Shown: positions 2 through 62,400, numbered from the stretch's first letter. The stretch: DNA of 64,000 nt from Candidatus Woesebacteria bacterium (GCA_050115675.1 JASFQB010000005.1:22556-86555), one strand, 5' to 3'. Made by a program: numbers and translations. The notes: generated by a model from the sequence alone, not told the origin.

Positions 2-355
2 ACGCCATTTTTGCAGGCGTTTACTGCGCTTGTTCTTCCTTTGTCTATCGTGACTGCAGTGGCTTTGAAGCTACCAGTTGCCATTACTATGTTGCTGTTT
101 GCGCCTTTTGTTCCAATTGGCGTAACGATTGTAACGCAGCTTATTGGATTGAACAATTTTGGTAGAGCCTTTAACGAAAAGGTGAGCGTCTGGCATTATA
201 TGTCGGTTGCTTGCTTGGCGTGGCTTTACCAGATCGTCCTTGGGGCGGCAGCGGTTTGGGCTGTTGCTCGACATCTGAAAGGAAACAATGGCTGGTACAA
301 GACGGGACGTAGTGGACAACATCGCAACGTTGCTTTCGAAGGTGGTGCAAAATGA
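2..355 (+). CDS. 3' end of a membrane-protein gene truncated by the window start (possibly the TM tail of a glycosyltransferase)
   Basis: Frame is open from nt 2 to TGA 353-355. Translation is rich in hydrophobic helices. The stop overlaps the next ATG (ATGA), implying co-transcription with the GT-C gene. Confidence 0.45.
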   Translation, partial: TPFLQAFTALVLPLSIVTAVALKLPVAITMLLFAPFVPIGVTIVTQLIGLNNFGRAFNEKVSVWHYMSVACLAWLYQIVLGAAAVWAVARHLKGNNGWYKTGRSGQHRNVAFEGGAK

Positions 356-1881
356 ACACAAAAAATATGCGTTTGCCCGAGTGGATTAAGAAGCATTGGG
401 TAAGTATCGAAGTATTGATGGCTTTGATGTTTGTTGTAGGGCTGGCTAATGCATGGAACCTCCATGGTTGGCCAGCGCGCCTTAACGACGACGAGGCGAC
501 GTACGTTGATCAAGCCTGGGCTTTTTTGCATAATGGCACGCTTAGTCACTACACCTACTGGTATGATCATCCACCCATGGGTTGGATTTTCATTGCCGCG
601 TATGCCTGGGTTACAGATGGTTTTGACCGTCTGTCCAGCGCCGTAATGGTTGGCCGCGAGGCTATGTGGTTTGTAGTGATGGCTAGTTGTGCACTCATCT
701 ACCTGCTCGTGCGGCGTCTAAACCTAAGCAGGTTTGCTGCTGTTGGCGCTGTGTTGATTTTTGGGCTTAGTCCGTTGGCAATTTACGAACACCGCATGGC
801 ATTTTTGGATAACCCTGCGACTATGTGGCTACTCGCTGCAATGGTTTTTGCGCTTTCCCCCAAAAAGGGATTGGGCGCAGCAATGGGTGCAGGAATTTGC
901 CTTGCGCTGGCTGTACTAACCAAAGAAACTATTGGCATTATGCTGCCAGTGGTAATTTGGTTGATGTGGCGCAACTCTGATAGGCGAACTCGCATTTGGA
1001 ATATCAGTGTATTTGTTACCATTTTTGGATTGCTTGGATTTTCGTACGTACTGTTTGCAATTCTTAAAGGCGAGCTGATTCCGGGATCAGACCACGTTAG
1101 CTTGGGCTGGGCCTTGTGGTATCAGTTTATTGGCCGAGAGGGAAGTGGTAGTGTTTTTGATTCTGCAAGTGATTCGTACAGATTAGTGCATGTGTGGTTT
1201 GCTCTTGATTCCTGGCTGCTATGGGCGGGACTGGCTGCTGCATTTGCTGGCCTGTTTGTAAAAAAGCTGCGTCCTTTTGCGGTTGCGGTTTTGATGCAGG
1301 TCTCGGTTGTGTTTAAGGGGGGGTATCTGCCCTCGCCGTACGTCATTGCCGTAATTCCGTTTATGTCTGTTTTGGTGACTGGCGTTCTTGAACTTCTTTG
1401 GAAGAGTGAGATGCCAATTACCAGTAGTGCAAAAAAGTTGTTCATTTTTACTAGACGATTCGCAATGGTAACGACTTGCACGGTGCTTGCTGTATCCATG
1501 GCATCTGTATCAATCAGTAATATCAGGTCGCAGTCGTTTTCTGATGGTGATTTGGCCTCTTTGCAAGCAACCGAATGGCTAATGAACAATATCAGCAAGG
1601 ACGACGTGGTCATTGTTGACGACTACATTTGGGGTGATCTTAAGATTGCTGGCTACAACCCAGTTTGGTACTGGAAGACCAGTGGTGATCCGCAGGTTAC
1701 TCGGGAAATTCTTCCAGAAGGCTACAAGAATGTCGATTACGTTGCAATGCCCTACACGCCCCCAAGTACTTTGGAATCTTTGCCCGTGTTGGGTGAGGCG
1801 ATAAAACACTCCACGGTCGTGGCGAGCTTTGGCGGAAGCTCCGAGGAGGCGGTTACGATTTACTGTGTTGATAACACATAG
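352..1881 (+). CDS. GT-C fold, lipid-carrier-dependent glycosyltransferase (PMT_2/ArnT-like)
   Basis: 509-aa polytopic membrane protein. The first extracytoplasmic loop 'WPARLNDDEATYVDQAW' (acidic DD/DE motif) and the overall topology are typical of GT39/GT83-type enzymes. Confidence 0.7.
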   Translation: MNTKNMRLPEWIKKHWVSIEVLMALMFVVGLANAWNLHGWPARLNDDEATYVDQAWAFLHNGTLSHYTYWYDHPPMGWIFIAAYAWVTDGFDRLSSAVMVGREAMWFVVMASCALIYLLVRRLNLSRFAAVGAVLIFGLSPLAIYEHRMAFLDNPATMWLLAAMVFALSPKKGLGAAMGAGICLALAVLTKETIGIMLPVVIWLMWRNSDRRTRIWNISVFVTIFGLLGFSYVLFAILKGELIPGSDHVSLGWALWYQFIGREGSGSVFDSASDSYRLVHVWFALDSWLLWAGLAAAFAGLFVKKLRPFAVAVLMQVSVVFKGGYLPSPYVIAVIPFMSVLVTGVLELLWKSEMPITSSAKKLFIFTRRFAMVTTCTVLAVSMASVSISNIRSQSFSDGDLASLQATEWLMNNISKDDVVIVDDYIWGDLKIAGYNPVWYWKTSGDPQVTREILPEGYKNVDYVAMPYTPPSTLESLPVLGEAIKHSTVVASFGGSSEEAVTIYCVDNT

Positions 1882-1893
1882 CAAAAAACTTTG

Positions 1894-1936
1894 CGCCCAG
1901 CCAATAATAGGTTACTCTCATTGGCTGGGCGTTTTA
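1894..1936 (+). terminator. Rho-independent terminator
   Basis: 12-bp perfect stem cgcccagccaat/attggctgggcg followed by TTTT. Confidence 0.75.
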
Positions 1937-2034
1937 AAATTTTACAACGGGAAAACACTTGTGCTTGTTGCGAACATGAGTTAAACTTTCATTTGTGTAG
2001 TAAAAACATAAAAATAAACTAAAGTAATAAAAAT

Positions 2035-2763
2035 ATGGCAAGATTACCCCAACCCGGGCGAGATATGGGCGCCTGGGGAGATATTTTAAACGAGTTTTTG
2101 CTCGAAGAGCATAACCCCGATGGTACGCTAAAATTGCGTACAACAGGCGATTTAAACAGAGAGCCAATTATAGAAGCGGGCTCGGTAGGCCAATATTGGC
2201 GCGGCGACAAAACATGGCAACTGCTAGATAAAACAGCGGTTGGCCTAAGCGCAGTAAACAACACAAGTGATGATGACAAGCCTATAAGCAGTGCCGCTCA
2301 AGCAGCGCTTAACGAAAAAGTTAATACAAGTGGCTCGGTTATTTCTGGCGATTTAACTTTTGCGTCAGACGTTGGTTTGACATTTAATGGCACTAATCAG
2401 TATCTAAAATGGGCAACTGGAGAAGGCTTATGGTTGGCCGTTGCTGACGATAACAAAAATCTCAAGCTCTCTTATGGTGGAGGTAGCGGGCGTTTGGTCA
2501 TTGACCAATATGGCTATGGAGAAGTTGCCAGATTTAGCAATGGCATGTTAAGCATGAGGTCGCATTACATAAAAGATGTCGCAGATCCGTACGATGCAAG
2601 TGATGCCGCTACAAAGAACTACGTAGATACGAATGGATGGTCAGACGTGCCAGTTGCTATAAGCAGTGCCGGAATAGCGGGCCAAAAGGCTTACGATAGC
2701 CAGTATATGTATATTTGTGTAGCTACAAACACTTGGCGCAGAGTAGCGCTGGAGACTTGGTAG
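2035..2763 (+). CDS. Phage tail-fibre-like protein (native GC), paralogous N-terminus to the 28237-29835 gene
   Basis: 242 aa. Fibre-type motifs 'YWRGDKTWQLLDKTAVGLSAVNNTSDDDKPISSAAQAALNEK' and 'IKDVADPYDASDAATKNYVD'. The N-terminus 'MARLPQPGRDMGAWGDILNEFLLEEHNPDGTLK' is shared with the GC-rich gene. Confidence 0.6.
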   Translation: MARLPQPGRDMGAWGDILNEFLLEEHNPDGTLKLRTTGDLNREPIIEAGSVGQYWRGDKTWQLLDKTAVGLSAVNNTSDDDKPISSAAQAALNEKVNTSGSVISGDLTFASDVGLTFNGTNQYLKWATGEGLWLAVADDNKNLKLSYGGGSGRLVIDQYGYGEVARFSNGMLSMRSHYIKDVADPYDASDAATKNYVDTNGWSDVPVAISSAGIAGQKAYDSQYMYICVATNTWRRVALETW

Positions 2764-4641
2764 ATGAAAAGGCTTTTGCCTCTTGTTGGTACTGTGGCAG
2801 CGGGCGTTGCGGTGGCAACTGCGGGCGCATGGTTTGTTGAAAGCTTGGTCAAAGAAGTCCCCCCAAGTGATGATGTTTCAACTGTTCAGCAAGCAAGCTC
2901 TGATGACCAAACAAAAAACAATACAAGCTCCGTTGCAGATGCGTCAAGCTCTGGAGCTGACGGCGAAGATAATATTGTTGAAGCGGTGCTTTCAAGTATC
3001 TCAAGATTTTTTGGTTTTGAAAGTAATCCACAAAGCAGCATAATTGCACCGTCAATTTCTGGGCAAATTGAGCAAATTTCACAGTCCGAAGCTCCTGACT
3101 ACCGACAGTTAAAATTACGTGGACTAAACCTATCTGGTTTGGAGTTTAGCGGAATATTTCAACCAAACACAGAGCAAACCTACCAGTATATCCGGCAAAA
3201 AGGCTTCAACCTGGTACGATTGCCAGTAGAGTGGAGTGAGCTGCAGCCATATTTGTACGGTGATTTTGATTCAACCTCAAAAGAATACGTTGATCAAAAC
3301 ATTGCTTGGGCAAAAGAGAATGATCTGGCGGTCGTGCTAGACGTACATAACTACGGGCGTCGTCAAGTGTATCGTGATGGTGGACTTACAGATGATTTCA
3401 GTGAATCTACCCAGCACACATTTATTATGCCTTACGGTGATCACGACAGCTCGGCAGGCACGCTAACGTTTCGTGATTACGGACGTGGCCTGGCAGGAAC
3501 AGCCGCAAACCCAGTTTCTTCAAACGGCTATAAAGCCACTTTTGACGCAAAAATTGATCAAATCGGTGGCGATCTATGGAATGAATTTTTTATGGATGTC
3601 TACTACCAAAGCGAAGATGATCGATATACTTTGGCAATAAATCCAGTAACAAATACTTGGGCGCTGCGTCAAACAATCAGCGGGCAGCAAACCGTTTTGG
3701 CTAGTGGTAATAAAACTTGGTCAATAGATCAATACTATAATTTTTCTATTGATGTGAATCAGGCAACAAGCGAAAAAATCAACGTAAGCGTTGATGGAGA
3801 ACCGCTGTTTGAAGTTAACTCTGTTAATACAAGCCCTGAGTTAAAGAGTGGTTATGTTGCTATGTTTCCGGCTGGCGTAAAAGCCACAATAAAAGATTTT
3901 ACGCTTGATGTGGGTGGGGACATCTCAAGCGGTGGATCTATAGAGCAGCGTATAACTGATGAAGCTCTGCCGATAGAAGCCTGGGAAGATTTGTGGAGAA
4001 GGTTGGGCGAGACATATAAAGACGAAAGCACCGTTTTTGCCTATGACCACAACGAGCCTCACGACTTGCCGGTTTCGACAAGCACAGACAATTACTCCTA
4101 CCAGGTTGCCGCGGCAAACGGCGTACAGGTGGCAACTGCCACTCAACTTGGGCAAACAATGGTAGACTCTTTGCGAGAAGTAGGTGATACAAAGTTTGTT
4201 ATGGTAGAAATGGATCATTGGGCAAACGCGCATTACTTTGGTACTCAGTATGGAACCAACGCTGCACCATGGATTTCAGATAGTCTATCGCCACAAAAGG
4301 TTGTATACTCTGGACACTACTATTTTGATAGTGACCATAGTGGTATATATAGCGATCCAACCACACCTTCAAACGAGCAAATTGCAGCCGATGTAACTCC
4401 GTTTTTTGACTGGTGTAGCAAAAACCAAGCGCTATGCTACATTGGCGAGTTTGGCGTACCAAACACGAGCACGTGGCAGCCGTCGTTAGCTTACTTTTTA
4501 CAAACAATGGAGAATTATAACATTTGGTGGACACATTGGGCTGGGGGTGATTTGTACTCGTCTGTTACGAGTATTCAGCCAACAGAATCGTTCACAATTG
4601 ACCAAATGCAAATGGACACAATTGAGCCGTTCTTAGACTAG
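2764..4641 (+). CDS. Membrane-anchored/secreted glycoside hydrolase family 5 with an inserted jelly-roll-like domain
   Basis: N-terminal hydrophobic helix and S/D-rich linker. GH5 signatures occur in order: GFNLVRLPVEW, VVLDVHNY, NEPH, GHYYF, IGEFG, WTHWAGG. The start ATG directly follows the upstream stop (TAGATG). Confidence 0.8.
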   Translation: MKRLLPLVGTVAAGVAVATAGAWFVESLVKEVPPSDDVSTVQQASSDDQTKNNTSSVADASSSGADGEDNIVEAVLSSISRFFGFESNPQSSIIAPSISGQIEQISQSEAPDYRQLKLRGLNLSGLEFSGIFQPNTEQTYQYIRQKGFNLVRLPVEWSELQPYLYGDFDSTSKEYVDQNIAWAKENDLAVVLDVHNYGRRQVYRDGGLTDDFSESTQHTFIMPYGDHDSSAGTLTFRDYGRGLAGTAANPVSSNGYKATFDAKIDQIGGDLWNEFFMDVYYQSEDDRYTLAINPVTNTWALRQTISGQQTVLASGNKTWSIDQYYNFSIDVNQATSEKINVSVDGEPLFEVNSVNTSPELKSGYVAMFPAGVKATIKDFTLDVGGDISSGGSIEQRITDEALPIEAWEDLWRRLGETYKDESTVFAYDHNEPHDLPVSTSTDNYSYQVAAANGVQVATATQLGQTMVDSLREVGDTKFVMVEMDHWANAHYFGTQYGTNAAPWISDSLSPQKVVYSGHYYFDSDHSGIYSDPTTPSNEQIAADVTPFFDWCSKNQALCYIGEFGVPNTSTWQPSLAYFLQTMENYNIWWTHWAGGDLYSSVTSIQPTESFTIDQMQMDTIEPFLD

Positions 4642-4758
4642 TTGACCCTCTTGTAAACTGTATTGTTTTATAGTACAATTACATCTGTTAATAACTTAAC
4701 TCAGCTTAAGTCATGGCTTAAGCATTCGGCTAGTCCGAATTCCGAAGGAGGAGACAAA

Positions 4759-5109: not shown

Positions 5110-5547
5110 ATGTCTAAAAGTATCAACCAAGTCATCTTAATGGGTAACCTAACTCGAGATCCAGATTTGCGCACAACGCCAACTGGCCAAAATGTTTGCA
5201 GCTTTTCGCTAGCTGTTAACAGATCTTGGCAGGGCTCGGATGGCCAAACTCAAGATGCGGTTGACTACTTTGACGTTACTGCTTGGGGCAAATTGGGCGA
5301 ACTCGTTAGTCAATACCTAAGTAAGGGCCGAAAATGCCTAGTTATGGGTCGTTTAAGCCAGCGAAGCTGGGAGCAAGACGGTCAAAAACGAAGCAAAGTA
5401 GAGGTTGTTGCAAACGATGTAACATTCTTAGATGGTGGTAACGGCGGCAATTCGAGTGCTCCTGCTAGTTCTTCAAAAAAGTCTGAAGACGTTGTAATTG
5501 AAGACGTTGACGACAAGCCAATTGATTTAAGCGAAATACCATTCTAA
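5110..5547 (+). CDS. ssb: Single-stranded DNA-binding protein
   Basis: OB-fold N-terminus '[34 protein letters not shown]', G/S-rich linker and acidic tip 'DLSEIPF'. Canonical rpsF-ssb-rpsR context. Confidence 0.9.
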
Positions 5548-5563
5548 TTTAACCGGAGTTTAT

Positions 5564-5767
5564 ATGCATAAAGGTAAACGATTCAAAAACGAAGTTTCCT
5601 ACTTTGACTACAAAGACGTTAAAGTATTGCAACGATACGTAAATGTTTATGGCCAAATTGAGCCAATTGCTAAAACTGGTTTAAGCGCAAAACAACAGCG
5701 CCAACTAGCAGTAGCAATTAAGCGTGCACGACACTTGGCATTGCTGCCATTTGTTGCAAACAGCTAG
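5564..5767 (+). CDS. rpsR: 30S ribosomal protein S18
   Basis: '[48 protein letters not shown]' matches S18. Confidence 0.9.
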
Positions 5768-5784
5768 ATTTTAAAAACAAAATC

Positions 5785-5818
5785 AAAAAGCGCTCGCTCT
5801 ATTTGGCTGGCGCTTTTT
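5785..5818 (+). terminator. Rho-independent terminator after rpsR
   Basis: aaaaagcgc...gcgcttttt inverted repeat with a T-run. Confidence 0.6.
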
Positions 5819-5842
5819 GGGTTTAAATGCAAGGAATAACAG

Positions 5843-6409
5843 ATGAGTTTAGGAATTACAGAGCTAAAAAAAGGTACACTTATTCAAATAGATGGCAGGC
5901 CATTTAGAGTTATTGAGTACTCTCAAAAAGTTATGGGTCGTGGCGGTTCAATAGTGAACGTACGACTTAAGGGCTTGCTTGATGGCGCGGTCATACCGAA
6001 AACTTTTAAGGGCTCAGAAAAAGTTGACGAAGCAATTGTAGACAATAAGACCGTGCAATATCTTTACTCTGACGGCACAAATTATCATTTTATGGACGGC
6101 AATACGTTTGAGCAATTTGAACTTGCTGCTGATTTTGTAGAAGACGCATCCCCATACTTTAAGGAGGGCAATGAAGTAAACTTGCAGTTTTACGATGGCA
6201 AGGTAATAAACGTAGAGCTGCCAAAAAACATCTACCTAGAGGTTACATATACAGAAAACGTGGTCAAGGGCGACACAACAAGCAGCGTGCTAAAAGACGC
6301 AACACTCGAAACGGGCCTAGTGTTAAAAGTTCCAGCTTTTATAAAAACAAGTGACATAATTAAAGTAGACACACGTACAGGCGAGTATTTAGAGCGTAAA
6401 AAAGATTAG
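5843..6409 (+). CDS. efp: Elongation factor P
   Basis: 188 aa; 'LKKGTLIQIDGRPFRVIEYSQKVMGRGGSIVNVRLK' and the three-domain EF-P length. Confidence 0.9.
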   Translation: MSLGITELKKGTLIQIDGRPFRVIEYSQKVMGRGGSIVNVRLKGLLDGAVIPKTFKGSEKVDEAIVDNKTVQYLYSDGTNYHFMDGNTFEQFELAADFVEDASPYFKEGNEVNLQFYDGKVINVELPKNIYLEVTYTENVVKGDTTSSVLKDATLETGLVLKVPAFIKTSDIIKVDTRTGEYLERKKD

Positions 6410-6410
6410 A

Positions 6411-6446
6411 AAAACTGCCCTGTTTTGTTTAAAACAGGGCAGTGGT
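6411..6446. terminator. Hairpin terminator between convergent efp and the 6448-6735 gene
   Basis: 12-bp perfect stem ctgccctgtttt/aaaacagggcag. The A-run on the + side gives a U-tract for the minus-strand transcript. Confidence 0.65.
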
Positions 6447-6447
6447 G

Positions 6448-6735
6448 CTACGCAAAATCGTGACGCAGTTCCCATCTATGAACGTAGTCTTCTCTGTAGA
6501 ATTCAATAAAAGCGGTGTACAGGTCGTTTCTACTCATAATGCTTGGCACGGCCGGTGTGACTTTGCAATGCGTGTCGCTTTCCATTCTGATAAGTTGTAG
6601 CTCCTCAGGCAGCTTGCTGATGATTTCTTCAATTGGCAATGTGGCTGGCCATGGAACGCTAAGCGAGATGTGAAGATCGGGCGAGTAGTCTTCTCCAACG
6701 ATTTCGTCCCAAACGATGAGTCTTTCAGATCTCAT
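6448..6735 (-). CDS. Hypothetical protein (95 aa)
   Basis: ORF with GGAG 5 nt upstream of the internal ATG at 6735. The longer 6816 start would overlap the tlyA start. No recognisable motif. Confidence 0.45.
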   Translation of the reverse strand: MRSERLIVWDEIVGEDYSPDLHISLSVPWPATLPIEEIISKLPEELQLIRMESDTHCKVTPAVPSIMSRNDLYTAFIEFYREDYVHRWELRHDFA

Positions 6736-8865: not shown

Positions 8866-9942
8866 TTAAACGTTAAATCTAAATTCTACAACGTCGCCAG
8901 GTTGCATGACGTAGTCTTTGCCTTCTGTGCGCATTTTGCCTGCGGATTTTGCAGCTGTCTCTGAGCCTGCTTTTGCTAGCTCATCAAAATCTACAATTTG
9001 TGCGGCAATAAATCCGCGCTCAAAATCACTATGAATAACACCTGCCGCTTGCGGGGCAGTGTCGCCCTGTTTAATTGTCCAGGCATGGATTTCTTTTGGT
9101 CCGGCAGTCATGTAGCTTTGCAGTCCAAGTGTATCGTATGCTGCTTTGATTAGCTGATTTAAGCCTGGTTCGGTTTGTCCGTAGGCCTCAAGCATTTCTT
9201 TGGCGTCTTCTGCTGGGAGCTCGCGTAGTTCTTCTTCTAGTTTTGCGCACATAAATAGTGCTTTTGCAGGATCTACCAAAGCGGTTAACTCATTTTTGCG
9301 CTGTTGATCTGTGAGAGTTGACTCGTCAACGTTGAACACATAAATTACCGGTTTTGCGGTCAATAGGTGCATGTCGCGAATTGCCTCGTGGTCAAGGCTG
9401 GGTAGTTTGTGTAGAGGAGTGCCTTGCTCGAGGTGGCGTTTTAAACTTTCGATATAGGTTGCGACGTCGCGCATTTTTGGATTGGCTTTTATCTCTTTGC
9501 CAATGCGTTGCAAACGTTGTTCTATTGTTTGTAGGTCAGCCAAAATTAACTCGGTATTAATAATTTCGATATCTGCCAAAGGGTCAACGCGGTCGGCAAC
9601 ATGCACTACGCTGTCGTCTGCAAAAGCGCGAACAACATGAATAACGGCGTTGCATTCGCGAATGTTCGCTAAAAACTTATTGCCCAGGCCTTCGCCCTTG
9701 CTTGCGCCAGCAACCAGCCCGGCAATATCTACAAAAGATACTGTGGCCGGAACAATTTTTTGAGATGAATAAAGATCTTTTAAAACATCAAGCCGCTCGT
9801 CTGGAACAGGAACAATTCCGGTGTTGGGCTCGATAGTTGCAAAAGGGTAATTTGCTGCCAAAATTTTGGCATCTGTAAGCGCGTTAAAAAGGGTAGATTT
9901 GCCTACGTTGGGTAATCCAACAATACCAATAGATAAACTCAT
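8866..9942 (-). CDS. ychF: Ribosome-binding ATPase YchF
   Basis: '[19 protein letters not shown]' P-loop, 358 aa, C-terminal TGS-like '[18 protein letters not shown]'. Confidence 0.92.
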
Positions 9943-10010
9943 AGGGCAATCATAGCATAAAAGGGTAATTTGGTAAAAATTAAATATTATGTTGTGATAT
10001 AATTGTTGCT

Positions 10011-10136
10011 GTCGAATCTTTTGATGATGCTGAATGTTTCATTGATCCTCTTAAAAAAATGAGTTACGAATACATGCCAGAAAGAATGTTTGCTGATCGA
10101 AAATCTTTTCCAAAAGGACCAAGGTCAAACATCTAA
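10011..10136 (+). pseudogene. Relic fragment of a GrpB-family gene (41 codons, no start, no N-terminal domain)
   Basis: Translation 'VESFDDAECFIDPLKKMSYEYMPERMFADRKSFPKGPRSNI*' fits the central GrpB pattern (..l..lGYe.......gR..F.KG), but only this piece is present. Confidence 0.3.
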
Positions 10137-10226
10137 AGCCCTGCTGTGAGTTGGGGCGTGTAATCTTGTTATTGTGGTTATGATTTGTTAGCATAACAGT
10201 ATGGCCATTATTGCGTGGGGAAGTTT

Positions 10227-27087: not shown

Positions 27088-27164
27088 GCCTCGGTAGCTC
27101 AGCTGGATAGAGCACCTCCGTCCTAAGGAGGGTGCCGGGGGTTCGAATCCCTCCCGGGGTACCA
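27088..27164 (+). tRNA. tRNA-Arg (anticodon CCT)
   Basis: Hand-folded cloverleaf: acceptor gcctcgg/ccggggt, D arm gctc..gagc, anticodon stem cctcc/ggagg with loop gtCCTaa, T arm ggggg-ttcgaat-ccctc, encoded CCA. Confidence 0.85.
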
Positions 27165-28165
27165 TATTTCCCTGATCATCATTTTTGAGCTTGAACAGCT
27201 CGTTTAACTTCGGTGGTTCCACCGAAGTTTTGTTTGCAGAAAGTAAGTCGCCATAGTTTGGTGCACTGTTGAATAACAGGCCAAAGAAGTTGGCTTTTTG
27301 CACTGGATCAATCTGTTTTACGAGCAAATCTTCTAGATGCTGCAATTAATTACCGTTTCTGAGCTAACGAGCTTGATCTTATCAACCAATGCTTTCGCCT
27401 GCGCTCGCAGTGTGTTTATATGCGTTTCAATGCGCTGCTCTTCGTCTACGACTGATTGGTTTCGTTGTGTCCAGACGGTTTCCACGGCCGCTAGGAGCCC
27501 GTCGATTCGTGCCTCTTCGTATTTGACCCGGTGTACGAAATCGGCAATGGTCGTTTCAAAATCTTTTTTAGGCACGCGGAAGCAGTGGCCACGCTTGTTG
27601 TAGTGGTAGGCCGGGTAAAGTTTGCCCATCTTGCCGCGTGTAGAGCTGTCAAAGAGTGGTTTTTCGCACTCGGGACGCACAGACGATCTTATGGTATGAA
27701 AACTCGGCGTTCCGCGTACTTTTGGGAGTTGCGTAGCGCTCCTCAGTCGGCCTTTCGTACAGAAATATAGCCCCATCTTTCTCGCCGATCACGAGCTTGC
27801 CTTTATTGGCGGCATTGAATAGCTCGTAAGAAATTAGGCCAGCGAATTGCCCTCTAACAGCCTTGTTGTCTGTTTACTTTTCGCAAATAATGCCGGCGTA
27901 TATTGGATTTGCGATGTATCGCCAGAACGTTTTAATGTCAAGCTTCTTGCCGCCTCGTTTGCCAATAGCCTGAGTACGCTCCTGTGTACTCCTGAGCGTT
28001 TGCGTGCGTGACTTATAGCCAAGCTTATTTATCTCGTCTACGATTTGTCGGTCGTCTAAAGTCCTTCTGGCGCGTAACTCAAACATTTTGGTTATGAATT
28101 CGGATTCGGTGGGGCACGGTCGTAGCGCTAACTGTTCCCCATGCTGCGTATCTGTGCAGTTAAAG
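27165..28165 (-). pseudogene. Large serine recombinase remnant: catalytic N-domain missing, at least 3 frame disruptions
   Basis: Recombinase-domain piece 'EFITKMFELRARRTLDDRQIVDEINKLGYKS...FWRYIANPIYAGIICEK*' (28086-27874). A shifted piece 'LISYELFNAANKGKL'. A zinc-ribbon and coiled-coil piece 'CEKPLFDSSTRGKMGKLYPAYHYNKRGHCFRVPK...RIETHINTLRAQAKALVDKIK' (27776-27333). A further-shifted C-terminal piece (27345-27165) that runs into the tRNA. Confidence 0.7.
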
Positions 28166-28236: not shown

Positions 28237-29835
28237 CTATCCAACCTCTGCCATCTCGACAGTCGCCACCCACCGGATGGTTTTCGCGGCTTCGCCGGTG
28301 ACAGTGATTGCGAGTCTGTTGTTGGTGCTGTCGGCGGTGACAGCGACGGTCCAGGTGGTGGCTCCGGCGTCGCACATGGTGGTGGTGCCGGTGCCGGTAG
28401 GGGTGCCGAGGAGTCTGCAGTTGCCGGTAGCGTCGCGGGTGATGGCGGCGTGGATGGGTGCCCATGCGGCGGCGGTGCCGGAGACGTCGGTGCGGTGAGC
28501 GGCGACGCGGATGGTGCATGCCATGGTGCGGGTTGCTGCGATGGTGATGTAGCCGCTGGTGGCGCCGTCGGCGGATAGCTCGGTGCCGGTGGCGTCGGTG
28601 GTGGTGATGCGGAGGACATCGACGACGTGTCGGGCGTCACCGGCGGTGGTGAAGTGCCCGTTCGAGGTGGCGTGTTGGCCGTATCTGTCTGCTTTTGCGT
28701 AGCTGCCGAGTGCGGTCGATGAGTCGCCGGACGCGGAGGCAGAGTTTCCGAGTGCGGTTGCGTAGTCGGCTGATGCGGTGGCCGATCTGCCTACGGCGGT
28801 CGCGGAGTCGCTGGCGGAGGCTGCGTATCCGACGGCAATCGAGGAGGAGCCGGATGCGGAGGCCGACCGGCCGACGGCGGTCGCGACAGTGCCGGACGCG
28901 GAGGCTGATTGTCCGACGGCAGTCGCATAGGAGCCAGCGGAGGCCGACCGGCCGACGGCTGTGGCGTAGTTGCCGGACGCGGAGGCTGATTGTCCGACGG
29001 CAGTCGCATAGGAGCCAGCGGAGGCCGACCGGCCGAGGGCGGTCGCGGATGTATTTATCGCAGAAGACAAAACCCCCACCGCCACAGAATTATTCCCACT
29101 AGCCACCGACGAAACCCCCAATGCCAAAGCGTCCGTCCCGGTAGCCGAACCGCCCGCACCAGGCGGCAAAGCCCAAGTACTATCGCCGCGCAAAAACGTA
29201 GTTCCGTCTGCCGTGCCCGTTCCAAGCCTGGCGGTATTCATCGTGCCAGATGTAATGTCCGCCGTACTGTGACCGTGATCTCCTGCGGCGGCCTGTTGCG
29301 CGCCCGTGCCCAAAGTACGAAGCGACGGCGTAGCCGTTGTGCCGTCTACCGAACCAGCTGCCATGTTGGCAGAAGTTAAACCCGTAAGAGCATCCGAACC
29401 TCCTGGCGCATGACTAGACGCGTGGGCCGTGGGAGTCCTGGCGTCCGAAAGTCGTGCATCATCGCCCTGGGCTGCACTGCCAGACGTAGTGCCATAAACA
29501 ACCGCCAATGTTACATCCGAATTCAGCGCTCCGCCACCCGTCAAACCAGTGCCAGCGACAACTTGTCTGGTGGACTGCACTGCGCCAGTTATGCGACTGT
29601 CATCTCCGGCGGCAACCGTGCCGCTTGTACTGCCCACGTTTTTAGTTGCAGAATCGCCCAAATCTGTAACATCCGAAGCTGTATGATGATGAATTACGTC
29701 TGCCTTAGAAGAGAGTGCACTAGATTTTAGAGAGCCGTCAGAATTATGCGTAACCAGTAAAAAATCGTTAAGGATATCACCCCAAAGACCGTCATCAGAA
29801 CCGGAAACTGGAAGCCTGGACACTCTGCCCCCCAA
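28237..29835 (-). CDS. Tail-fibre / trimeric-adhesin-like protein, compositionally chimeric (GC-rich body)
   Basis: 532-aa ORF; the likely true start is GTG 29823, giving 'MSRLPVSGSDDGLWGDILNDFLLVTHNSDGSLK'. Fibre motifs 'AAGDDSRITGA', 'AQGDDARLSDA', 'AAGDHGHSTADITSG', 'FLRGDSTWALP'. YadA-head/Hep_Hag-like repeats 'SASASGNYATAVGRSASAGSYATAVGQ'. High GC3. Confidence 0.75.
   Translation of the reverse strand: MGGRVSRLPVSGSDDGLWGDILNDFLLVTHNSDGSLKSSALSSKADVIHHHTASDVTDLGDSATKNVGSTSGTVAAGDDSRITGAVQSTRQVVAGTGLTGGGALNSDVTLAVVYGTTSGSAAQGDDARLSDARTPTAHASSHAPGGSDALTGLTSANMAAGSVDGTTATPSLRTLGTGAQQAAAGDHGHSTADITSGTMNTARLGTGTADGTTFLRGDSTWALPPGAGGSATGTDALALGVSSVASGNNSVAVGVLSSAINTSATALGRSASAGSYATAVGQSASASGNYATAVGRSASAGSYATAVGQSASASGTVATAVGRSASASGSSSIAVGYAASASDSATAVGRSATASADYATALGNSASASGDSSTALGSYAKADRYGQHATSNGHFTTAGDARHVVDVLRITTTDATGTELSADGATSGYITIAATRTMACTIRVAAHRTDVSGTAAAWAPIHAAITRDATGNCRLLGTPTGTGTTTMCDAGATTWTVAVTADSTNNRLAITVTGEAAKTIRWVATVEMAEVG
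28891..29036. repeat. Intragenic tandem duplication, 81-bp period (27 codons)
   Basis: 65-nt string gccggacgcggaggctgattgtccgacggcagtcgcataggagccagcggaggccgaccggccga occurs identically at 28891-28955 and 28972-29036. Confidence 0.9.

Positions 29836-59317: not shown

Positions 59318-62400
<3,083 letters not shown>

Follow-up and report, generated by a model that had tools for sequence, protein, structure and literature searches.

Phages carry tail fibres and tailspikes equipped with depolymerases, and in podophages an anchor fibre and an enzymatic spike can be supplied by adjacent genes, as in the Klebsiella phages and coliphages K1-5, G7C and KP32. Here we describe two adjacent genes in a cellular genome that resemble such systems. 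They lie in a stretch of 64,000 nucleotides (nt), hereafter the window, from a genome labelled Candidatus Woesebacteria bacterium (GCA_050115675.1, JASFQB010000005.1:22556-86555). The first, open reading frame A (ORF A), encodes a protein resembling phage tail fibres, and the second, ORF B, encodes a glycoside hydrolase of family GH5 that is predicted to be exported. We read the pair as a domesticated, split phage-type fibre/depolymerase module that would act on a glycan of a partner cell, and we give this whole functional statement a probability of about 0.45, while its anatomical and evolutionary part is very probable.

Like the phage fibre/depolymerase systems, the pair combines a conserved N-terminal docking part with an exchangeable distal tip, and a glycan-cleaving domain is encoded either on the same chain or by the following gene. 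The ORF A modules are homologous to annotated tail-fibre and minor-tail proteins, and relatives of the GH5 domain occur in virion structural modules. Unlike the phage systems, there is no virion, and the pair is located between housekeeping genes and vertically inherited; in place of a tail-docking domain, ORF B carries a Sec-type N-terminus followed by a stalk; and cultured phages rarely use GH5 as a depolymerase fold (2 of 50,697 cultured-phage records). A literature search returned no account of Saccharibacteria in which phage-fibre-like genes are paired with hydrolases. The parts, namely tail-fibre modules and GH5, are already known, and what is new is the cellular, vertically inherited split arrangement, an enzyme with a predicted Sec export route, the inserted beta-sandwich and the recurrence of fibre/enzyme pairs.

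The sequence-only reading of this locus had tied its case to synteny of the pair in relatives. The gene order FtsK, GT2-GtrA-GT2, PMT-like, fibre, GH5, rpsF, ssb, rpsR, efp was found in seven of seven other lineages in which DNA upstream of the GH5 gene exists (L001, L002, L003, L004 (= L005, L006), L007 (= L008, L133), L011 and L015), a conservation that exceeds chance, unlike same-strand adjacency alone. Identity to the window was 61-66% over fibre residues 1-198 (91% in L011) and 53-72% over the GH5 protein across the relatives, compared to 44-46% for the flanking PMT-like protein and 71-76% for TlyA. The G+C content (GC) of the two genes (46.4 and 44.5%) is native relative to that of the window (43.7%), and the ratio of nonsynonymous to synonymous substitution (dN/dS) in comparison with L011 was 0.084 in ORF A and 0.055 in the first part of the GH5 gene. 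Both ORFs were intact in all eight lineages, across which synonymous sites are saturated. Because the divergence falls within the range of the flanking genes, the GC is native and dN/dS is low, these results indicate that the pair is old, vertically inherited and functional, and held by purifying selection. The ORF B clade is nevertheless rare, with 16 clusters at 90% identity among 5.8 billion proteins, which form one cluster at 50% identity, and a single match among the species representatives of GTDB.

The syntenic relative L015 is labelled Candidatus Saccharimonadales, as are all labelled syntenic relatives. The NCBI protein P0121, which is identical to ORF B, comes from a metagenome-assembled genome (MAG) named 'Candidatus Woesebacteria bacterium', and the Woesebacteria label of the source genome may be wrong. 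The window is chromosomal, since an rRNA operon, RNase P RNA and tmRNA are also present in it.

ORF A had no Pfam family match and 28 PHROG matches, mostly to tail fibre or minor tail proteins (best E = 4e-18), and 179 homologues were found. Its modules occur in at least 351 viral loci and in 265 cultured phages, which bears out the fibre-like identity proposed from the sequence alone and gives these modules a phage ancestry. These counts are those of the DUF5907-like repeat, the viral loci being from IMG/VR; in the 265 cultured phages, including phages of Synechococcus, Klebsiella, Arthrobacter, Mycobacterium and Gordonia, it is annotated as minor tail or tail fibre. The N-terminal MARLP module was located at Met1 in 62 of 120 ORF A homologues and is rarer in viruses than the repeat, being seen in 24 IMG/VR contigs, where it starts proteins of 112-1291 amino acids (aa), several of them partial and at contig ends; in these contigs the next gene mostly follows close behind. 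When the 45-aa MARLP module was used as a profile query, the matches were all fragments of 32-79 aa, which gave no usable census. The ORF A homologue P0031 scores as Pfam Mtd_N across the MARLP region, a likeness to Mtd of Bordetella phage BPP-1; unlike Mtd, ORF A itself has no Mtd_N score and no C-type lectin fold was seen in it. The collar motif gave weak matches to Pfam Phage_T7_tail (E 0.088), to several tail-fibre PHROGs and to solved tail fibre gp9 and tail spike chains.

Receptor-binding proteins are known to swap their tips. The C-terminus of the fibre is exchanged among the syntenic orthologues: a tip of about 40 aa is present in the window, L011 and L002, and in the orthologues of 293-300 aa an unrelated domain of about 100 aa after residue 198 replaces it. 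The AlphaFold2 (AF2) monomer model of ORF A is an extended multi-module chain with a mean predicted local distance difference test score (pLDDT) of 67 and a predicted template modelling score (pTM) of 0.27, low values that are expected for such a chain, and its best matches in BFVD, a database of predicted viral structures, were tail fibre, minor tail and depolymerase proteins. Hydropathy analysis of ORF A revealed no signal peptide, transmembrane (TM) or hydrophobic segment. The homology to tail-fibre modules is not accompanied by a location in a virion structural module: no phage genes were found beside the pair in the eight lineages, the neighbours being glycosyltransferase genes and rpsF-ssb-rpsR-efp.

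ORF B matched the Pfam GH5 family PF00150 (clan GH-A) at 117.2 bits against a cut-off of 23.5, in two separate stretches, in agreement with its earlier assignment to GH5. Residues R152, H195, N430, E431, H518, Y520, E562 and W592 did not vary among 16 sequences and coincided in the alignment with the catalytic motifs of solved GH5 enzymes. In the AF2 model the barrel parts show alternating strands and helices, with pLDDT mostly 80-95, and Foldseek matched the model to GH5 targets with a probability of 1.0, a TM-score of 0.72-0.76 on the target and E 1e-15. The model thus predicts a (beta/alpha)8 barrel with the full GH5 catalytic set, and ORF B is predicted to be a retaining GH5 endoglycanase. 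Its closest solved matches, both by sequence (E 2e-27) and by fold, were the endo-beta-1,4-glucanases XacCel5A, P. stutzeri Cel5A (Ps_Cel5A), RBcel1 and fungal Cel5A, a distant similarity that is confined to two barrel segments and amounts to 12-17% identity over the whole Foldseek alignment. RBcel1 and Ps_Cel5A belong to subfamily GH5_5 (PMC8900817). ORF B shares with the GH5_5 glucanases (RBcel1, P. stutzeri Cel5A, XacCel5A and fungal Cel5A/EGII) the catalytic NEP and GE(F/Y)G motifs, and is unlike them in the insertion of about 190 aa in its barrel, the N-terminal anchor or signal and the long stalk. We call it GH5_5-like because of the distant match and the insertion, which is foreign to GH5_5. 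The second half of the insertion is modelled as a beta-sandwich (strands 256-383 in the AF2 secondary structure). The insertion alone had no Pfam match; it is common to the phage, fusion and Nocardioides-MAG relatives described below and absent from ordinary GH5 enzymes.

Export of ORF B is well supported by its sequence. The N-terminal segment is hydrophobic yet variable in sequence in all orthologues, and it could equally be a signal anchor or a cleavable Sec signal, with A-T-A at residues 18-20 as a possible signal-peptidase site. The description of the enzyme as envelope-anchored is supported with respect to export (hydrophobic residues 4-29), and tethering is putative. Residues 7-92 had pLDDT <50, that is, the stalk is disordered in the model.

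The relatives of this GH5 type link it to phage structural proteins. Its best match outside the clade was P0136 (44% identity, including the insertion), which carries a LamG_3 domain instead of the anchor and is encoded on the IMG/VR contig L009. The viral status of L009 derives from its IMG/VR listing, a weak SU10_adaptor match and a 361-aa gene shared with the phage contig L014; a PHROG scan of ten proteins around the L009 GH5 gave no matches, and GT1/GT2 genes lie a few kb upstream of it. Two further IMG/VR contigs, L013 and L014, clearly derive from phages, as they encode terminase, portal, protease and major head proteins, and both have GH5 relatives downstream of the head genes: in L013 the GH5 domain is inside a 962-aa fibre-like protein, and in L014 it is a 367-aa protein near a tail protein. 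An 843-aa protein of a Nocardioides MAG (70% GC) unites this GH5 type and its insertion with fibre-like ends. About 34 further 50%-identity clusters that match across the insertion emerged when 1.84 billion cluster representatives were searched with a profile, most of them multidomain proteins of 550-2281 aa, some with pectate-lyase-like, glycine-rich, LamG or K1-lyase parts. In a neighbour-joining tree (303 barrel columns) the anchored clade was monophyletic, and its sister group (85% bootstrap) comprised phage, Nocardioides-MAG and fibre-fused GH5s. The enzyme sits on a virion-type protein with a docking N-terminus in the relatives L013, L017 and P0166, and not in ORF B.

A protein of about 360 aa, to which no family is assigned, directly follows the GH5 gene in three viral or viral-like contigs (L009 8391-9476, L014 ~9095-10198 and L135 5518-6588), and in giant proteins it is inserted in the GH5 barrel after the NEP motif, namely in L141 (689-1774, by BLAST) and in P0144, P0147 and P0154 (read by eye); from its placement it may be a second catalytic or binding unit. 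L134 and L135 had been considered as sharing the adaptor and portal-like genes of L009, and BLAST matched only the 361-aa gene of L135.

Fibre modules and this GH5 type are also found in single chains. L016 (Saccharibacteria UBA5152, DHXQ01000034) and the metagenomic L139 encode proteins of 930-971 aa with the MARLP module, the DUF5907 repeat and a GH5 with the insertion; their MARLP parts are 62-63% identical to ORF A residues 1-33/41, and their genes are located among non-phage neighbours. Like the pair, these fusions thus unite MARLP, DUF5907 repeat and inserted GH5 in a non-phage neighbourhood; unlike the pair, they are one chain without a TM segment, have a GH5 identity of 34-35% and carry an extra C-terminal fibre-like region. 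The fusion gene of L139 is directly preceded by a separate MARLP fibre gene (461 aa), and that of L016 by the gene for a second, TM-anchored GH5 (412 aa; 5260-6498). The GH5 protein P0166, which also holds a region reading as a pectate-lyase-type beta-helix, ends in 30 residues that share 47% identity with the ORF A tip (residues 213-242; E 2e-6). Another GH5 protein, P0162, ends in 94 residues that share 45% identity with the alternative tip found in the 300-aa orthologues (E 8e-20). Since the MARLP module, the ORF A tip and the alternative tip are each joined to GH5 elsewhere, three fibre modules are covalently linked to this GH5 type. A simple fission of an L016-type fusion was rejected: the match to ORF A is limited to its first 33 residues and the two GH5s share 34% identity, which indicates shared modules and not a recent split. 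The comparison with phage depolymerases, drawn earlier from gene order, now comes from homology, the nearest relatives of this GH5 type being either parts of phage structural modules or joined to these fibre modules.

As had been noted from the sequence alone, the TAG stop codon of ORF A is directly followed by the ATG of the GH5 gene. Translational coupling, also proposed there, agrees with this adjacency and with the GGAG in the window, and is not a general feature, as five of the seven relatives have 134-211 nt between fibre and GH5 (L001, L002, L003, L004 and L007). The nearest relative, L011, has GAGG and a 1-nt gap at the junction. An abutting stop and start with the ribosome-binding site inside ORF A was thus found in the window and is not conserved among the orthologues. 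The spacers of L001, L003, L004 and L007 hold a promoter-like site of the TTGACA-N17-TAACCT type, which is missing from L002; the L015 spacer, aligned with its length unmeasured, has the same site. In these spacers AGGCAACC occurs twice, once inside the promoter and again about 100 nt downstream, together with a strong AAAGGAG Shine-Dalgarno (SD) sequence, which is weaker in L002. Rfam returned no family for the conserved fibre-to-GH5 spacer of the relatives. The repeated AGGCAACC, absent from the window and L011, may represent a pair of operators or a leader not yet described. Tight coupling and co-transcription are a local state and not a defining property of the pair. ORF A and ORF B share a reading frame (2764 - 2035 = 729), probably by coincidence. 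Read-through of the TAG into an 868-aa fibre-GH5 chain was rejected, as the hydrophobic segment would fall in the middle of the protein and the frames differ by one base in L011.

The terminator that the sequence-only reading had placed upstream of the pair, at 1894-1936, was confirmed by folding as a hairpin at 1893-1932 with a 13-bp stem followed by UUUUAAAAUUUU (free energy -25.5 kcal/mol, z = -5.6); none of 200 shuffles was as stable. A simple consensus scan overlooked this hairpin because its loop exceeds 8 nt. The same hairpin is present in L011, and GC-rich inverted repeats occupy the terminator position in three of the four distant relatives aligned (L001, L003 and L004; by eye, unfolded). 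Consistent with the proposal that no terminator interrupts the pair, the consensus scan, which skips loops >8 nt, found no terminator-like site on the + strand between 954 and 5736, and none was found by it after ORF B. Between the hairpin and ORF A is a site that we infer to be the promoter of the pair (1959-1987): its TTG and TA..CT positions are conserved in an alignment of the PMT-to-fibre spacers of six lineages, and a stricter consensus scan did not detect it. The GT2/PMT genes are a conserved context of the pair but a separate transcription unit. Coordinates are collected in the table below.

Table. Features of the fibre/GH5 locus in the window, followed by features on other contigs (contig name given with the position).
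Feature	Position	Strand	Description
ORF A	2035-2763	+	242 aa, phage-tail-fibre-like; TAG stop 2761-2763
ORF A residues 1-33, MARLP N-terminal module	2035-2133	+	MARLPxPGxDxGxWGxILNDFL..HNxDGTLK; window sequence MARLPQPGRDMGAWGDILNEFLLEEHNPDGTLK
ORF A residues 40-108, DUF5907-like tail-fibre repeat	2152-2358	+	..GDKTWQ..VGLSAVNNTSDDDKPIS..AL..K; phrog_38418, E 4e-18
ORF A residues 168-200, T7-tail-fibre-N-like collar motif	2536-2634	+	..I.DVADP.DA.DAATKNYVD; weak matches only
ORF A residues 203-242, C-terminal tip	2641-2760	+	..YMYICVATNTWRRVALETW; phrog_17312 tail protein, E 1e-10
ORF A/ORF B junction	2751-2766	+	SD-like GGAG 2751-2754, 9 nt before ATG, then TAG and ATG at 2761-2766
ORF B	2764-4641	+	625 aa, GH5 glycoside hydrolase, predicted to be exported
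ORF B residues 4-29, hydrophobic N-terminal segment	2773-2850	+	Kyte-Doolittle 1.8 over 19 residues
ORF B residues 30-114, stalk	2851-3105	+	S/T/D/Q-rich, low complexity; variable length and sequence among orthologues
ORF B residues 117-204, GH5 barrel, N-terminal part	3112-3375	+	invariant R152, H195; aligned to GH5 structures
ORF B residues 205-395, insertion of ~190 aa	3376-3948	+	between barrel strands 3 and 4; splits Pfam/PDB matches
GH5 barrel, C-terminal part	3949-4638	+	includes H518, Y520, W592
Acid/base E431 in NEP	codon 4054-4056	+	
Nucleophile E562 in GEFG	codon 4447-4449	+	
GT2-GtrA-GT2 gene, 3' end only (window edge)	11-355	+	GT2 domains; overlaps PMT-like gene
PMT/ArnT-like GT-C glycosyltransferase, upstream neighbour	352-1881	+	Pfam PMT; synteny
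Intrinsic terminator of upstream GT2/PMT-like operon	1893-1944	+	stem-loop 1893-1932, then U-rich tract
Promoter-like site for the pair	1959-1987	+	TTGTGC, 17 nt, TAAACT; read from sequence
Promoter-like site downstream of ORF B	4651-4679	+	
rpsF, downstream neighbour	probable start 4759; region to 5106	+	followed by ssb, rpsR, efp
Fibre-to-GH5 spacers of relatives	L001 5795-6000; L003 5806-6000; L004 6904-7114; L007 1335-1531; L015 ~663-859		
MARLP fibre loci with GDPD phosphodiesterase partners of ~760 aa	L105 7001-15149; L106 7001-9985		
MARLP fibre locus with right-handed beta-helix partner of 628 aa	L107 7001-10758		
MARLP fibre locus with LamG_3 partner of 580 aa	L213 6001-8852		
MARLP fibre locus with partner of 253 aa	L108 7001-8891		no family assigned

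The upstream operon (window 11-1881; L004 1497-5818) comprises a gene of about 905 aa that joins a GT2, a GtrA-type membrane domain and a second processive-type GT2, and that overlaps the PMT/ArnT-like GT-C gene by 4 nt. It looks like a polyprenyl-phosphate-sugar dependent surface glycosylation operon, for which the S/T-rich stalk of the GH5 protein would be a plausible substrate. Elsewhere in the window, the 23S rRNA match at 59321-62399 (3079 nt against a model of 2925 positions) may hold an insertion of about 150 nt; 23S rRNA insertions are frequent in this bacterial group.

Fibre genes of the MARLP type are also paired with enzymes or other proteins outside this clade. Five others, on Saccharibacteria-type contigs, were found in housekeeping surroundings, and at a distance of -1 to 4 nt each has a same-strand gene downstream that encodes one of the partners listed in the table; this sample is small and was not randomly chosen (n = 5 loci). 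L105 additionally encodes a TM-anchored beta-helix protein and a second MARLP protein. Export signals were absent from these five fibres and from the partners checked, namely the GDPD, beta-helix and 253-aa proteins.

The window itself contains a second fibre gene of the MARLP type (28237-29835, - strand, 532 aa), in which YadA_head repeats occur. GC rises to 69% in the body of this gene, compared to 43.7% for the genome, and is near-native at the N-terminal end. The gene adjoins a tRNA-Arg (27088-27164) and a 147-aa ORF (27333-27776, - strand) that by eye resembles part of a recombinase. Over residues 47-142 the fibre protein shares about 60% identity with minor tail proteins from phages of Gordonia (153 records) and Mycobacterium. 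From its composition and matches, this gene looks like a native anchor joined to a part recently acquired from an actinophage or from Actinobacteria. A broader and tentative idea, which we regard as somewhat unlikely, is that MARLP fibres are a Saccharibacteria toolkit, each paired or fused with a different envelope-polymer enzyme or lectin-like protein, be it a GH5 glucanase, a GDPD phosphodiesterase, a beta-helix lyase or a LamG protein, so as to recognise and locally open the host envelope; distal parts would be exchanged with phages of the host Actinobacteria, and the window would hold two members, the ORF A/ORF B pair and this chimeric fibre gene.

In the explanation that we favour for the pair, a split phage receptor-binding/depolymerase protein would have been inherited vertically by one Saccharimonadales clade. 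ORF A would form a fibre consisting of the MARLP module, the DUF5907-like repeat, a beta-rich middle, the T7-like collar and the exchangeable C-terminal tip. Both genes would be transcribed together here, from a promoter just after the 1893-1932 terminator, and ORF B would be translated from the GGAG inside the end of ORF A, be exported by the Sec route by way of its hydrophobic N-terminus and carry the barrel with its inserted beta-sandwich on a flexible stalk of about 85 residues. The fibre would recognise the target, with the tip setting the specificity, and the GH5 enzyme would locally cut a surface polysaccharide of the beta-glucan type, the likeliest target being the envelope or matrix of the partner (host) cell. 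A type IV secretion-like system is a candidate route for export of the fibre, and such a system was reported to be essential for epibiosis in Saccharibacteria (PMC10633639).

Several observations weigh against this explanation. Its main weakness is that ORF A and all its homologues have no signal peptide or TM segment, so the fibre and the enzyme may not meet. Obligatory co-expression is not conserved, and elsewhere the GH5 gene appears to have its own promoter and leader. As the anchored clade is sister to the phage group and not nested in it, the transfer may have run from phage to cell or from cell to phage. The nearest characterised enzymes are plain cellulases, one of which is suspected to act in cellulose synthesis (PMC8900817), and nutritional or self-glycan roles are compatible with this; a processive-type GT2 is encoded two genes upstream. 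Finally, the epibiotic lifestyle is assumed from the labels of the relatives.

A nutritional role would make ORF B a secreted or tethered endoglucanase acting on environmental beta-glucans (plant litter, microbial residues) and ORF A an unrelated phage-derived neighbour. This would fit the GH5_5 endo-beta-1,4-glucanases as closest solved structures, the Sec-type N-terminus and the isolate name of L015, SMAG_U8752, which we take to be that of a soil MAG catalogue, the record title giving no habitat. It would also fit the promoter-like site, repeated AGGCAACC and strong SD sequence that the GH5 gene has of its own in most relatives, as expected of independent regulation. We consider it unlikely, however, as the neighbour is kept in seven of seven lineages with a dN/dS of 0.08, other proteins join the same fibre modules covalently to this GH5 type, the GH5 type otherwise occurs in phage or fibre-like multidomain proteins and not in polysaccharide-utilisation contexts, and other MARLP fibres are paired with non-nutritional enzymes such as GDPD. 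Alternatively, the enzyme could remodel the cell's own envelope, trimming or transglycosylating the polymer made by the upstream GT2/PMT genes, with the fibre as a structural or glycosylated surface component. A GT2 with a processive-type Glyco_tranf_2_3 domain and the PMT-like GT-C are immediately upstream in all relatives, the S/T-rich stalk is a plausible substrate for O-glycosylation, and RBcel1 and Ps_Cel5A transglycosylate and have a proposed role in cellulose synthesis (PMC8900817). The locus then recalls the BcsZ-type endoglucanases, in having a predicted exported endoglucanase near a processive-type GT2. It is unlike them in being GH5 and not GH8, in having its nearest relatives outside synthase operons, and in forming a separate transcription unit, with a strong terminator, a new promoter-like site and the fibre gene between the GT2/PMT genes and the GH5. 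The GH5-type relatives L009, L013, L014, L016, L017 and L139 are not beside synthases, save for the GT1/GT2 genes in L009, and MARLP fibre/enzyme pairs elsewhere have no GT neighbours, which makes self-envelope remodelling quite improbable.

Displayed fibres and a depolymerase could also strip or mask the cell's own phage receptors, act as a decoy or attack competitors, as the phage receptor-binding origin of the modules, the arms race suggested by tip swapping and the presence of a GH5 relative of similar GC (44%) in a viral contig would allow. Such a defensive or competitive role faces the same fibre export problem as the explanation that we favour, no match to a known system of this kind was seen (PADLOC not run) and the neighbourhood is without defence-like genes; we regard it as highly improbable. 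The phage-derived modules, with no other phage gene nearby, might lastly suggest a decaying prophage remnant without present function. We reject this, as the ORFs are intact in eight lineages with saturated synonymous sites and a dN/dS of 0.06-0.08, the catalytic residues are invariant, the GC is native and the chromosomal position is fixed.

Since this GH5 type is located in tail-like proteins, it more likely serves infection than carbon metabolism, which bears on the reading of the GH5 genes of soil viruses that are described as 'auxiliary metabolic'. Transposon sequencing in Saccharibacteria implicates pili, a secretion system and several adhesins (PMC10633639). How ultrasmall epibionts recognise and breach the envelopes of their hosts is largely unexplained, and the pair described here gives concrete candidate genes for these steps. 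If our explanation is true, it would clearly exemplify how a cell can domesticate phage receptor-binding modules outside tailocin-like particles.

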